Assembly (NCBI RefSeq): GCF_013167455.1
Contig: NZ_CP038328.1
Source: Escherichia coli O157:H7
GTDB lineage: Bacteria; Pseudomonadota; Gammaproteobacteria; Enterobacterales; Enterobacteriaceae
Reading direction: 5' to 3' (one strand)
DNA: 64,000 nt
Shown: piece after piece, positions 12,001 to 18,000 of the stretch
How positions within the stretch are numbered: position 1 is the stretch's first letter
Layout: each line of letters begins with the position of its first letter
Program-made: the position numbers

Positions 12001-15000
12001 GAATTGGCCTTACTGGTGTTAGAGGAAACCAGCCTTCCCGAAGGAAGTTCCATACAGCCCACCATTGTTGAGGTGTGCGTGTGCGCCGATACAAAAAAAA
12101 AGACGCTGGCGCGTCGTGTATCGCCTCTAACTCCAGCGGGAGGCCAATCCCGATCCCCGTTTTATAAGGGATAGCCTCAGTATATGCCGCTTTTTTGCTT
12201 AAGTGGTCGGATGTGTTGCGAGAGAAGTTTGTGCGAAAAATACCTGCGTTTTCTTTGAAAGCACATAATAACATCACGTTATTTATGTTTATGCAGTGTG
12301 TCGCAAAGCGACCTGAATCATCACGCAAATTACAACCATAAAAAATACCTGCGCTGTGATATGAGGTACTACAGCGCACCGCTTTACGGGTACAGACAAT
12401 GACAAATGAAGAATTACAGGAAATCGCATTATCCATACTTGAGCGACAGCGCGAAAAAGCACAACGGCAAAGGAGGTTGTTACTTAATCCACTGCCACTC
12501 ACCAGGCCAACACGATTTGCCCTTGAAGATTTTGTCGAGAAATACCCACGGCGGTTAAAAGCCACTAAAAACCGACCGCCTGGCTGATAGCCTTGTCCAC
12601 CAGCTACACTCATGGCATAGTTGGTGATGCGCTTGATTTCCTTTATCTCCATTGGCGACCCTTCCGTGGTCGCCTTTGTTTTGCCTGCCATTCCTGCATC
12701 ATGCGGATATTCGCGCCATACAGGGCCACCAGCGCGATAATTTAATAAAACCTCCTTCTGATAATGCTTAACGTGTTTCATGCGCTCAGCGGCGAAATGG
12801 CTCACGATATGGTGCATGTAATCAGAATGGTTGAGGCTCAGTTGTGCGAACGTATCCGCCGTGTCGATGTACAGGGCGGCAGCGTTGCGGATGTCAGGCA
12901 TGTTCATGCTCTCCCATGCGACGGGCCAGCCAGCGCTGTGAAAGGCGGATTAATTCGGCTTTTCGCTGCTGGTAAGTCATACCCAACTCAATCAGCGTGA
13001 TATTGCTCTGGTCAAGGTAGGAAAGGTGTTCAAGCTGCATAACGCTCATGCTGTCACGCGGTTTTCCTTTGATGCCGTTCGCCTGCGCCCATTGTTTCGC
13101 CGTCATGCCGCCCAGCACGATACGCGCCAGCATATTTGATTCTGTGGTGTAGTGGTGTTGATGAGTCTCTTTTCCCAACTCTGCGCGGTACAACTCCAGC
13201 GCAGCGCACATAGGCTTAAAAAAACTGGCAACGGTGACACGCGCTTTCAGTTCACGGCGCAAAGCTGCGGCACGTTCCGGCGCTGCCTTGTGTAGCTCTT
13301 CTTCACATTTGATGAAGTACTGGCGAATTGCGCGGCCCTGTTCAGTGCGTTCGACCATCGCCAGTTCTTTAGCCATGTTCGTGGAGATCAAATAGTCTTC
13401 ACTGCGGCGATCACCGCCGCGCTTTGTTGTCCAGCCAGAATCAAACTGTTCAATATTTACACTTTGGCTCCCCCGTTTCGGGGAATCAAAGTACAAATTT
13501 TCTACAACCTCAAAATCCACACCTTTTTTAAATCCGTACTCCTCAATACGCCCTTTGATCCAGGTAGTGAAATCACGGCCTACACCGAGCGCTTTATGCA
13601 GTGCGCGTGCGCTGACAATGCCCGTTTCATATCCGCCAATAATGCCAGGTGATACCGGAATAATTGCGGCGAAATACTGTTGGCTCAGTTCTTCGGACTG
13701 AACGAAGCCCTGCCCCTGTACGGGCATATTCGGACGTTTCATTGAAAACTCCTGCTGTCGAATCAGGTTTGGTGCTGACGGGCGCGGAACTGTACGCCCG
13801 TCATGCTGATCACTGCTTGGTGTTGTTGCGGCGCTCGTTCAGCCAGTGGTTGATCTCCACCGCATTAAATACGGTGTTTTTCTCCCCCAGCTTCGTGGGC
13901 TTCGGTAATTTGCCGATACGCACCCAGCGGTCGATAGTTGACACGCTGGTATCAAGCAACTTAGCCAGGTTGCAGCGGCGGATGTAGCCCGTGGTAGGGA
14001 TAGCTTCTTGATGGTTAGCTGTCATGATTCCCTCTTGGGTTAAAAGTTGATGTTTTCTCTATTCTATTGGTTGTTTGTACAGCATTCCATCAAATCTGGA
14101 ATCTATCAAAATATTCACAGATTCTATTGAAATAATATATTTCCAGTAAAAGATTGTGTGAGCGGGAAGAGGTGCTAAGACTTTGAAAGTTTTTGCTTTA
14201 TTGGCGATAGGTCACTGAATCCGTATACATCCTGATACCGTGATATACCCAATGCGTCGTTATGCGCTGTTATGGTTTGCCATCTTTTGCCAGTTTTTAA
14301 CGTGTTAATCCTGTTTATACCGATTTATAACGATTAATAACGGTGAATAAATTTTGCTGGTGGGGGATGTATGGGGATTACAGCCCCGTGAATACAGGGC
14401 GTGTTGGCTGGTTAATCTGCCTGGCTTACTGCCAGTAATGCGGCTGATATTTTTTGCATAAACGTGGATTTGGCTAGCCCTTTTGGCGATATCCCTTTCT
14501 CCTTCATCAGCGCTTCCATGTCGCGGTAAATGGCTGAACGGTTTGGTTCTCCGTCCTGAATGTATGCGGTTGTGCCTGATTTTTTCACGAGGAGTAAAAC
14601 CAGCAACCCCATCATCTTCATGTTTCCCTGTTCTTCGTCGAGTTTCCTGTGCTGCCCCCTTCCGCTGCGGCTTGTTTCTTTGATGTAACGGACCAGATCC
14701 CGCCCGCCAAGATTAAGGGCTTTTTCCTCCCAGTTTTTTGTCCCACGCAAATCATCGATAGTATCTGTTACCGCCTTGATTATTGCCTCTGGCGTGCCTG
14801 CCTCCATGAACGGGAAGGAAGCAAGGAATATATCCCCCGCTCTGTATGGCTCATCCTTGCTTGTTTTTACTCCACTATGCAGCCTGATAGCACGTGCGAT
14901 ATGAGTTCTGGCTGATTCGACCTGTTCGAACTTGTCCTGCGGTACGTCGCCTATCCTCATTGACGGATTAAGATCAGCTAACGCAAGGGCCATTTCGTGG

Positions 15001-18000
15001 GGAGTGATTGAAACAGAAGCGCAAAGGCGCTCTATTGGCGATTTCTTCAGGATGTTAATCATGATTTAGCCCTTCTGATTGGTGTCACGTTGTAGTGTTC
15101 TCCGCGTTCCAGCGACACTAACAGAGTGGTCCACTTCGCCAGTGCGTCCCGTCGTTCATTGAAATACTGATAGCGGTTGTATATGCCTTCGACTCCCTTG
15201 ATGCGGTGATTGAGGCATCTTTCAGCGACTACCGGATCAACACCAAGCGCAGCTAGATGTGTGCGTGCTGTACGGCGGAAGTCGTGAATAGTGAAATTTG
15301 GAACTTCCGGCATCTCTGCGCGGACTTTTGCCAGCGCAACAGGTAGGGTGCTCTCCTGAATGTGGGGGATCATCCTGTGCTGCATTTTCCGCGCCGGAAG
15401 CACCCAGGCACTATTGCATGACAACACACGCAACTCTCGCAGCCATTCAATAACGGGATGGACGAGTGGAATATCGATGGGGTCGCCGTTTTTGCTGCGT
15501 TCCTCCGGCAGATGCCATACAGCGTTATCAAGGTCGAATTCTTCCCATCTGGCGGCGCACAACTCCATCTTCCTGACACAAAGCGCCAGCAATAGCTTAA
15601 ATGTGAGTTCATTCTCGCGGCTGAAACCCTTTGCGGTCCGCATAGCCTGAAAGAATCGGATTAGCTCTTCACGAGTCAGCCAACGGTCGCGGGAGGACTC
15701 CTTGCCACCAGCATCAGAGACTTCAAACGCAGAGCATGGGTTAATCTCCAGCACATGACGTTTTACCCCGTAGTCGAATATGCGGCGCGTCCAGCGTAGA
15801 ACGTCCGTTGCAATGGTTGGCGCTCCACGGTCAACAATTGCCTTTAGCATCTCGTCAATGTGTCGTGGTTTTACGTCCTCAGCCTTCATATGACCAATAC
15901 GCGGGTTTATGTCTTTGTCGATGCGACGGCGCAGGATGTCGGGATGTTTCCATCGTGGCAGTATCTGACGTTCGAAATATTCGGCAGCAAGCTCTGATAC
16001 GCGCACGGCCTTTTTTTCTGCCTCAATTTTTGCCAGGGCTTCGGCCTTACGCTCCTGTTTCTCTGCTGCTACGTCGTACCCAAGTGCGACGCGAGCGGAT
16101 AGTTCCTTTGCTGTTTCTCTGGCTTTTGATAGCGAGTAATCAGCATAGGAACCAATGACCATTGCCCGTGCTTTTCCTGCGAATTTGTAGCGGAATCGCC
16201 ATGTTGGTATCTGGTCTTCTTTCCGGTAACGAAGGTATAAGCCACCGCCATCTGACCGCCCTTCGAATCGTTCACCTGATTTTATCCATGCCCTGATCTG
16301 AATATCTGTGAGCTTTGGCATTAAGAACTCCTGAACATTGAATAGAGAGGTGTACCCAAACAGATGTTCCAAAATGCAATTGGGTACACCTTTGGGTACA
16401 CGCTAATCATGCGCTTTCTTGCGTCGTTATGATAGCCATTAATTACAAAAAAACCCGCATTATCGCGGGTTTGATTGAATTATTGCGCTTTATTGATTCC
16501 CTCTGATAGCTTACTCCACATTTTGAATCTGCTCGCGCATCTGCTCAATCAACACTTTCAGCTCAATCGCGGAGTTTGTCACTTCGGCATTGATAGACTT
16601 CGACGCAAGAGTGTTCGACTCGCGGTTGAATTCCTGCATCATAAAGTCCAGACGACGACCAACGGCTTCTTTTTTCTTCAGAATGTTGTAGGTCTCTTTG
16701 ACATGCGCTTCCAGGCGGTCCAGTTCTTCGGCAACGTCAATTCGTTGTGCCAGCAGAACCAGCTCCTGCTCCAGACGGTTGTTTTCCAACTGAACCTGAG
16801 CATCTTCCAGCTTCGCGACCAGACGCTCACGCTGCCATTGCAGGATTTCCGGCATATGGGCGCGGACTTTGACCACTTCGGCGGTGACGCCTTCCAGACG
16901 CTGCTCGATCAATGCTTTCAGTGCCTGACCTTCGGTTTCGCGCGCGACAATAAAGTCGTCCAGCGTACCATCCAGCGCCGCGAGAATTTCAGCGGCAATG
17001 GCGTCAAGATCCTGCTCCTGGGCTGCCATCACGCCCGGCCAGCGTAGAATATCAACCGGGTTGATTTCCCCTTCGTCACTCTGCATTTTTACCCAGTTCG
17101 CGGCAGTTACCAGCTGTTTAGCCAGTTTTTCGTTGAGGATCAGCTCACCTTGCGCGCTAACATCTGGCTCATAGCGCAGGGTACATTCCACTTTACCGCG
17201 CGTCAGGCGAGAACGAATACGCTCGCGAACGACAGGTTCAAGGCTACGGAACTGCTCCGGCAGACGAAAGTAAGTTTCCAGATAACGCTGGTTTACCGAG
17301 CGCATTTCCCAGGTTGCGCTCCCCCATTCACCCTTGATTTCACGCCGGGCGTAGGCGGTCATACTGCGGATCATAGACGTTCCTGTTTATAAAAGGAGAG
17401 GTGGAAGGATTATAGCCATCGATGCCTTGTCAGGATAGGAATAACCGCCGGAAGTCCGTATAATGCGCAGCCACATTTGTTTCAAGCCGGAGATTTCAAT
17501 ATGCGTCCAGCAGGCCGTAGCAATAATCAGGTGCGTCCCGTTACCCTGACTCGTAACTATACAAAACATGCAGAAGGCTCGGTGCTGGTCGAATTTGGCG
17601 ATACCAAAGTGTTGTGTACCGCCTCTATTGAAGAAGGCGTGCCGCGCTTCCTGAAAGGTCAGGGCCAGGGCTGGATCACCGCAGAGTACGGCATGCTGCC
17701 ACGTTCTACCCACACCCGTAACGCTCGTGAAGCGGCGAAAGGTAAGCAGGGTGGACGCACAATGGAAATCCAGCGTCTGATCGCCCGTGCTCTTCGCGCG
17801 GCAGTAGATTTGAAAGCGCTGGGTGAGTTCACCATTACGCTGGACTGCGACGTGCTTCAGGCTGATGGTGGCACGCGTACCGCGTCGATTACGGGTGCCT
17901 GCGTGGCGCTGGCAGATGCGCTACAGAAGCTGGTGGAAAACGGCAAGCTGAAAACCAACCCGATGAAAGGGATGGTAGCCGCAGTTTCTGTCGGAATTGT

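Follow-up and report, generated by a model that had tools for sequence, protein, structure and literature searches.

An orphan gene coupled to the integrase and a conserved repeat-bearing alpA promoter form a candidate control cassette in a phage satellite of Escherichia coli O157:H7

How are the phage satellites of Gram-negative bacteria kept silent in the chromosome, and how is their activator gene alpA switched on? In the Gram-negative phage-inducible chromosomal islands (PICIs), AlpA is the helper-induced, self-activating master activator; the global repressor has been described as “unclear”, and the inducer as unidentified (PMC6092414; PMC11773190). A locus of Escherichia coli O157:H7 brings up this question again. 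It is contained in a stretch of 64,000 nucleotides (contig NZ_CP038328.1 of the RefSeq assembly GCF_013167455.1), which we will refer to as “the window”, always meaning the whole stretch. A satellite island of about 16 kb is situated there between dinD and yicC, and a gene encoding a protein of 216 residues, hereafter orf216, lies between its tyrosine integrase gene (int) and alpA, separated from the latter by an AT-rich gap. The initial annotation had noticed that orf216 occupies the usual position of an excision or directionality partner of the integrase, and had taken the repeats of the gap as operator-like. From the computational analysis presented here, orf216 is more likely an on/off control protein of the island than an excision helper. 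We tentatively propose, with somewhat less than even confidence, that it is a DNA-binding regulator made together with the integrase and gating alpA, probably as a repressor.

The product of orf216 is listed in RefSeq as the hypothetical protein WP_000608238.1, and homologues are found at 60-93% identity. Compared with a 94%-identical E. coli allele, the ratio of nonsynonymous to synonymous substitutions (dN/dS) is 0.135, at a dS of 0.30; the open reading frame (ORF) orf216 is a real gene under purifying selection. The overlap of 4 nt with the stop codon of int, already pointed out by the initial annotation, is confirmed (Table 1). The integrase itself carries the RefSeq label of tyrosine-type recombinase, and its homologues contain Arm-DNA-bind_3, Phage_int_M and Phage_integrase domains. 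About 40 loci with orf216-family genes were collected from isolate and metagenome assemblies, GTDB genomes, IMG/VR and one GenBank “phage” record (individual loci are given below as L numbers). Each family member examined follows directly after a tyrosine integrase gene, including members only 21-27% identical. Among the 27 IMG/VR and early loci with upstream sequence, all have an ORF of integrase size running up to the start of the gene, and the int/orf216 junction consists of a 4-nt overlap in 15, a 1-nt overlap in nine and a short gap in three; L012 and four distant loci are int-first too, with 1- or 4-nt overlaps or gaps of 11-98 nt. Downstream of the gene, an AT-rich gap is present in all loci (290-650 bp, and 1.8 kb in L045), after which an AlpA-family gene, in several alleles, is found in nearly all of them. 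The exceptions are L048, with a different ORF of 206 aa, and L008, L012 and L026, where the gene is truncated or was not recovered. In L008 (Enterobacterales bacterium AwEntero, 6990-7100), the alpA frame that follows the promoter repeats is broken off after about 30 codons, and this copy of the element is probably defective.

The alpA promoter of the window carries four direct repeats of 13 nt each, R1-R4, with the consensus TTTCAATGGAATT. Their start-to-start spacing is 19/21/16 bp, and the same pattern was obtained in 0 of 20,000 shuffles. The reiterated TCTATT motif, by which the region had first attracted attention, occurs three times within 71 bp of the gap, a count reached in 140 of 20,000 composition-matched shuffles; these copies correspond to the reverse strand of AATAGA cores belonging to the larger 13-nt boxes. 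The predicted alpA promoter has a poor -35, coinciding with R4, and transcription is predicted to start near position 14054. In all relatives, a TAnnnT hexamer is situated 17-18 nt past the TGGAA core. The sequence of R1-R4, their 19/21/16 spacing and a distance of 83-96 nt from the start of R3 to the start codon are kept in 27 distinct sequences, and this geometry is retained even where the orf216 protein is only 21-27% identical to that of the window. The remainder of the gap is unalignable among relatives. High-scoring R boxes were found in these elements at the alpA promoter only, 2 kb from the end of the island that holds the attachment site (att), and none lies near att. A blastn search of E. 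coli genomes with the alpA promoter returned the same island only. The repeats have the regulatory look that had been ascribed to them, with four conserved boxes of which one lies on the predicted -35 of alpA. On the plus strand, the best sigma-70-like match nearby (TTCACA-16-TATATT, 10/12, 14114-14141) is antisense to alpA, lies inside R1-R3 and is not conserved in relatives.

Several known DNA-binding factors were considered as readers of the boxes. IHF was rejected, as the fit to its consensus is poor, the invariant TGGAA core falls in an unspecified part of that consensus, and a spacing of 20 bp leaves no room for an IHF dimer on every box. Promoters of the sigma-54, sigma-E or sigma-32 type fitted poorly in a consensus comparison. 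Autoregulation by AlpA through the promoter-proximal repeats is doubtful and was rejected as the main reading: identical boxes accompany two unrelated AlpA alleles, and they are missing where the same AlpA alleles occur without orf216.

The linkage between gene and boxes was approached from the DNA side by a motif-only scan of IMG/VR, using a degenerate 48-nt pattern over R2-R4 that was blind to any protein. It gave 29 matches, and an orf216-family gene (E 1e-70 or better) stands upstream in 26 of the 26 that have more than 335 nt of upstream sequence; the remaining three are located at contig or locus ends. When orf216 is present, R boxes are found with AlpA type 1 and type 2 alike. On the other hand, the islands EcCICFT073 (with an int-alpA gap of 365 bp) and that of E. 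coli TO6 carry those AlpA types without orf216, and have no R boxes. The rest of the element is variable, since the integrase types at orf216 loci share only about 25% identity with each other, primase types and iterons differ between elements, and some elements with the cassette encode capsids (e.g., LR881103). Judged from sequence comparison, the block that moves together is composed of orf216, the gap and the R-box promoter, whose surroundings vary by the swapping of int, alpA, primase and packaging modules.

Table 1. Features of the int-orf216-alpA region and of the associated replication and immunity loci (window coordinates).
Feature	Position	Strand	Remarks
Tyrosine integrase gene (int)	15059-16321	-	420 aa from ATG; yicC end of the island; PHROG 1 at 2e-61
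Shine-Dalgarno-like GAAGGG for orf216	15070-15075	-	Inside the int 3' end, 7 nt before the ATG; consensus only
ATGA overlap of int stop and orf216 start	15059-15062	-	TCAT on the window strand; 4 nt; translational coupling
orf216	14412-15062	-	216 aa, ATG start; all-helical orphan; candidate regulator acting at the alpA promoter
Control region between orf216 and alpA	14026-14411	-	386 bp, AT-rich
Single P4-type iteron TATTCACC	14342-14349	-	Isolated, not clustered; a 7/8 copy at 14388-14394
Three adjoining 10-bp tandem arrays	14252-14350	-	Coding-strand units CGTTATTAAT/CGTTATAAAT/CGGTATAAAC, TGGCAAA x2, CATAACNNCG x2
R1 box TTTTACTGGAAAT	14139-14151	-	
R2 box TTTCAATAGAATC	14120-14132	-	Holds one TCTATT copy on the + strand
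R3 box TTTTGATAGATTC	14099-14111	-	
R4 box ATTTGATGGAATG	14083-14095	-	At the -35 position of the predicted alpA promoter
Predicted -10 TAGAAT	14061-14066	-	17 nt past the R4 TGGAAT core
Fifth, partial box	14057-14069	-	Encloses the predicted -10; holds the other two TCTATT copies
Shine-Dalgarno-like AAGAGGGAATC of alpA	14026-14036	-	
alpA	13810-14025	-	71 aa, AlpA/Vis family; PHROG 66 “excisionase and transcriptional regulator” 1e-8; homologues with PF05930
isrK	12096-12172	-	Rfam 52.1 bits, above gathering threshold
C4 antisense RNA	11982-12069	-	Rfam 73.8 bits, above gathering threshold
Probable ori/crr iterons	8892-9113	both	Nine TGTTCACC/TATTCACC P4 type-1 iterons with an AT-rich core in their midst; downstream of the primase gene

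These loci also bear on the role first assigned to orf216, as a large recombination directionality factor or an accessory Int partner needed for excision. The coupling to int is retained alongside three widely differing types of integrase, which speaks for such a partner, but the two proteins do not diverge together: L008 and L009 share 66% identity in the ORF and 23% in Int, the window and L008 share 37% and 84%, respectively, and a third pair 29% and 83%. The divergence of orf216 does not track that of AlpA either. At 216 aa the protein is, as had been remarked, unusually large for an excisionase; profile searches gave no similarity to Xis, Vis, AlpA or Cox proteins, no annotated PHROG excisionase matched, and its alignment with AlpA/Vis reached an hhalign probability of 10%. 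Moreover, a protein of the AlpA/Vis family is already encoded 386 bp downstream; excision of related islands depends on both alpA and int, and overexpressing AlpA is by itself enough to induce Int-dependent excision (PMC6092414; PMC11773190). The R boxes are confined to the alpA promoter, at the above-mentioned 2 kb from the att end, and putative Int arm-type sites (GGGTACAC, see below) are located elsewhere. An excision partner is thus the least supported of the explanations considered, and we regard it as highly improbable.

The protein itself gives few indications on its mechanism. The only library family matching orf216 is PHROG 30524 (1.1e-30, nearly full length), which has no annotated function, so that membership is uninformative in this respect. 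No match was obtained in Pfam, searched with the window protein and with 24 family members one by one, in NCBIfam, or in sequence and profile searches of the PDB, in agreement with the first impression that no family could be recognized. The remote-homology and structure searches suggested at that time have been run, and did not reveal a family: in Foldseek searches of AFDB50, the significant matches are proteins of about 130-270 aa, all but three uncharacterized, and every match with a named source comes from Enterobacterales or Gilliamella. The family is also rare, with 36 clusters only among 1.84 billion representative proteins searched with the family profile, and 7 loci only among 100,044 species genomes, the latter obtained with a narrower family alignment because the broad one was too divergent. 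Searches for a DNA-binding domain gave weak hints resembling a helix-turn-helix (HTH) only. Two conserved elements, a C-terminal HTH-like segment (G195-x3-S-T-F-x2-K204) and an invariant basic loop (GRGxHRKxDE), are candidate DNA-contacting parts. No published characterization of the family was found in the literature. Whereas the element type is already known, the cassette appears to be an undescribed satellite control architecture built around a protein of unrecognizable fold.

How could such a gene act? We infer the DNA binding, the target, the sign of regulation and the helper sensing of orf216 from the arrangement of gene and boxes. The protein would be translated together with Int from the int transcript, and because of this it would be made whenever the island establishes itself or resides in the chromosome. 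As a putative DNA-binding protein, it would occupy the four R boxes on one face of the DNA, from about -100 to -35 of the alpA promoter, and their occupancy would gate alpA, which in islands of this kind encodes the master activator and excision factor. The likeliest sign would be repression, lifted under an active helper phage, the alternative being a helper-dependent activator. Repression is favored because orf216 is expressed from the integrase transcript, like Stl, P2 C and 186 cI, and because R4 lies over the -35; nonetheless, the geometry of the upstream repeats suits an activator equally well. As alpA is a master switch without a known repressor and the cassette is conserved, a gate formed by orf216 is the most economical reading of the locus. 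A more ambitious version, in which the family would supply a class of Gram-negative satellites with the helper-sensing master switch that has been missing, is doubtful. With a fold unlike solved structures, the protein would keep hold of the alpA promoter by way of the four phased R boxes, and the binding of a helper-phage protein to its fast-evolving domain would release or activate the promoter; if true, it would explain both the silence of the island and its detection of the helper.

Acting as a repressor, orf216 would be a functional analogue of Stl from the staphylococcal islands, and likewise of the operons in which P2 and 186 combine a repressor gene with int. In these phages, the lysogeny regulator is co-transcribed with int (P2 C with int in the Pc operon, and cI-int in 186), and P2 C, like 186 CII, recognizes direct repeats separated by about two turns of the helix at a promoter. 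Unlike them, orf216 has no homology to P2 C, 186 cI or 186 CII, the gene order is reversed, with int first, and there are four boxes instead of two. The likeness to the Stl/Rpr proteins of the Staphylococcus aureus pathogenicity islands (SaPIs) lies in a gene beside int that, on the orf216 side judging from its position, is expressed with int in the quiescent island, and that immediately precedes the control region of the operon for excision and replication, which holds in all orf216 loci. Both are also all-helical proteins of similar size with quickly diverging alleles (PMC6092414 for Stl). However, the two resemble each other neither in sequence nor in fold, orf216 and alpA share one orientation instead of being divergent, and the R-box motif is constant between orf216 alleles.

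A number of observations speak against a gate made by orf216. Neither an HTH nor any other domain was matched significantly by the protein, and there is no significant relative of its fold. A weak -35 preceded by direct repeats is an arrangement more characteristic of activation than of repression. Covariation between protein and boxes was sought between clades and none was found, and the R boxes are essentially identical across protein clades sharing 21-37% identity, so that a conserved binder from the host or helper fits as well. Gene and boxes are physically adjacent, and their co-inheritance may partly reflect linkage; the negative-control islands number two only. Finally, the P4-type C4 RNA immunity region of the island could alone supply quiescence.

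Some of these points are shared by the main rival, according to which orf216 is accessory cargo lodged in a 5' hotspot of the satellite (e.g., a single gene for anti-phage defense or superinfection exclusion) and passively expressed with int, the R boxes being read by a helper or host factor. Besides the lack of covariation of the boxes with the protein, the family is rare, patchy and fast-diverging, and the int-to-alpA slot is variably filled, being empty in EcCICFT073 and occupied by a 321-aa gene in E. coli TO6 and by a small one in EcCIMP1. In P4, int is directly followed by cII, which belongs to the gop-beta-cII region, described as a defense hotspot. Immune systems have been reported from either end, 5' or 3', of PICIs, the 5' end being a known accessory hotspot (PMC11364771), and helper phages activate alpA promoters in islands without orf216 (PMC6092414). 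But cargo normally varies among close relatives, whereas here the gene, its junction and the promoter module remain constant while other modules swap; an R-box promoter without the gene was not found (26/26), and the cassette replaces the alpA promoter, which goes beyond the mere addition of a gene. As to defense, PADLOC gave no significant match of orf216 to a known anti-phage system, the best one being non-significant (E 0.055) and to an HTH model, with scattered weak matches only for other family members. On balance, the cargo explanation seems to us rather doubtful; if correct, orf216 would be a new candidate satellite-borne defense gene.

Besides the R boxes, the gap contains a second class of repeats, farther from alpA. 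The region is AT-rich as initially described (GC 0.38-0.39 vs roughly 0.50 in the flanks), although its length is 386 bp instead of the 385 bp first given; it contains no ORF of at least 40 aa and gave no Rfam match. The TTATAACGATT-like motif recorded by the initial annotation forms an array with a period of 10 bp and 2.9 copies (14314-14342, Tandem Repeats Finder), and the same program delimited two other 10-bp arrays beside it at 14252-14274 and 14276-14298. Phased units of 10-11 bp are present in every related gap, their sequences differing between elements, even between those with similar orf216 proteins. EcCICFT073 lacks orf216 and yet has phased arrays before alpA. In P4, vis, the alpA homologue, is likewise preceded by three 10-bp tandem repeats (CTTTAAGTGG and variants, the “ori type 2 repeats”) and then primase iterons, and the arrays of the window occupy the same relative position. 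Read on the opposite strand, the P4 repeats are TTAAAGNCA, presumably the P2 Cox-box consensus. Because the arrays persist in EcCICFT073 and have this parallel in P4, they are probably a general feature of alpA/vis control regions. By analogy, they are plausibly bound by Cox/Xis/AlpA-type proteins, including those of the helper, and could serve as sites for a filament of such a protein, as at the P4 PLL promoter.

The arrays, together with the start of the gap, also raise the possibility that orf216 is a core life-cycle factor acting away from the R boxes, either by binding to the arrays, through RNA polymerase or Rho at the border between int and alpA, or by interference with the helper, and that another conserved factor occupies the boxes. 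The position of orf216 and its linkage to the gap are conserved, and phased 10-bp arrays exist in every gap. In the scan, nothing resembling a terminator followed orf216, and the gap begins with 60 nt of C-rich sequence, so that a control over read-through from int can be envisaged. Nonetheless, array sequences differ among elements with similar proteins, EcCICFT073 has arrays without the gene, and orf216 shows no sign of binding RNA or polymerase, so that we consider a factor of this kind unlikely.

Two other functions for the gap were ruled out. It is not the replication origin, which its phased iteron-like units and the parallel with P4 had suggested, given that its arrays do not match the iterons of the cognate primase; in each element these iterons sit downstream of the primase gene and are unlike its own gap repeats (TGTTCACC in the window, GTTGGTTCA in L002, CCCTACC in L003 and CTGTACC in L009, at the same place in relatives). 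Nor are the arrays Int arm-type sites, since the probable arm sites are upstream of int and the arrays do not track Int types. In the gaps of L009, L011 and L015, some distal arrays are CTGTTCAT; this unit resembles the “tor box” decamer of E. coli TorR, CTGTTCATAT, as well as P4 iterons, possibly by coincidence. L015 (LR881103.1, “Escherichia phage vB_KppS-Ant”) is a 16.5-kb sequence from an induced lysate, containing int, an orf216 homologue, R boxes, a type-2 AlpA, a primase and capsid, portal and terminase genes, with perfect 10-bp arrays in its gap (GCATTCAACA x4 and CGACACGTAA x3); it looks like a capsid-encoding satellite rather than a phage.

The island that harbors the cassette is a P4-related, PICI-like phage satellite, an identity based on the C4 and isrK RNAs and on the P4 type-1 iterons beside the primase gene. 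It extends roughly from 400 to 16450 of the window, a chromosomal region found at at least 99% identity in 62 complete genomes, and its genes are almost all on the minus strand. Their order is int, orf216, alpA, an AntA/AntB antirepressor, an Icd-like gene, the P4-type primase, ssb, a ProQ/FinO-family gene, three PerC-family regulators, a YeeE/YedE transporter, a Q-like antiterminator and an IS2 pseudogene, the latter indicating that the island may be degraded. The features of Gram-negative PICIs are present (int, alpA, pri-rep and an iteron origin in the same orientation, about 15 kb, and no structural or lysis genes), together with features of P4-like elements (an alpha-type primase with TGTTCACC iterons, a CI/C4 immunity RNA and a vis/alpA gene).

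With the AlpA-controlled PICIs EcCICFT073, EcCIMP1 and EcCIEDL933, the island shares int, alpA, a P4-type primase, an iteron origin, PerC-family genes and a size of about 16 kb, as well as a long region upstream of alpA, which in characterized islands is helper-induced and autoactivated (PMC6092414; PMC11773190). These three islands lack orf216 and R boxes; conversely, the island of the window adds the C4/isrK region and shows no recognized packaging genes. With P4, it has in common the crr iterons after the primase gene and an immunity RNA of the CI/C4 type. P4, however, lacks an orf216 homologue and R boxes, and carries sid, delta and psu, capsid-redirection genes of which none is annotated in the island. 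The late promoter of P4 uses activators of the Ogr/Delta type.

The cassette provides a concrete protein and a DNA target of 100 bp, in a tractable host, for the question of how PICIs are silenced and how alpA is switched on. In addition, the PerC-family genes are relatives of the regulators of the virulence locus of enterocyte effacement (LEE) in E. coli O157:H7, and the induction state of the island could thus bear on virulence gene control.

As to the remaining features, the C4 RNA and isrK adjoin each other upstream of the Icd-like gene, further down the int-orf216-alpA operon, and together they make up the P4-type RNA immunity region of the island. The Q-family antiterminator (about 3232-3624) also hints at an arrangement of the isrK/AntQ kind. 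The iteron cluster downstream of the primase gene is probably the ori/crr of the island; P4-type iteron matches amount to 16 in the window, vs 3.9 expected. Between the start codon of int and the yicC terminator (16451-16472), GGGTACAC occurs as two direct copies and one inverted copy (16349-16401), which are probably arm-type sites for Int on the att side. No direct att repeat of at least 11 nt common to both ends of the island (yicC and dinD) was found.

The yicC site is also used by other elements. An integrase similar to that of the window (about 77% nucleotide identity) is present there without the orf216 cassette in several hundred other E. coli genomes, and the combination of a window-related integrase at yicC with other gene content appears to be much commoner in E. 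coli. TO6 was the one example of these examined: its island (L016, NZ_LS992166.1, 5152-7790) replaces orf216 and the R boxes by a 321-aa hypothetical gene followed by a terminator and, at the alpA promoter, by the near-palindrome TGTTCATATATGTACA, an ensemble that may constitute an alternative control cassette. Finally, two stretches of the window (5363-5600 and 6824-7006) contain further repeats, namely three TTTTTTGCGCAC-containing units and, between the PerC-family genes, a tandem repeat of 62-65 bp in three copies.

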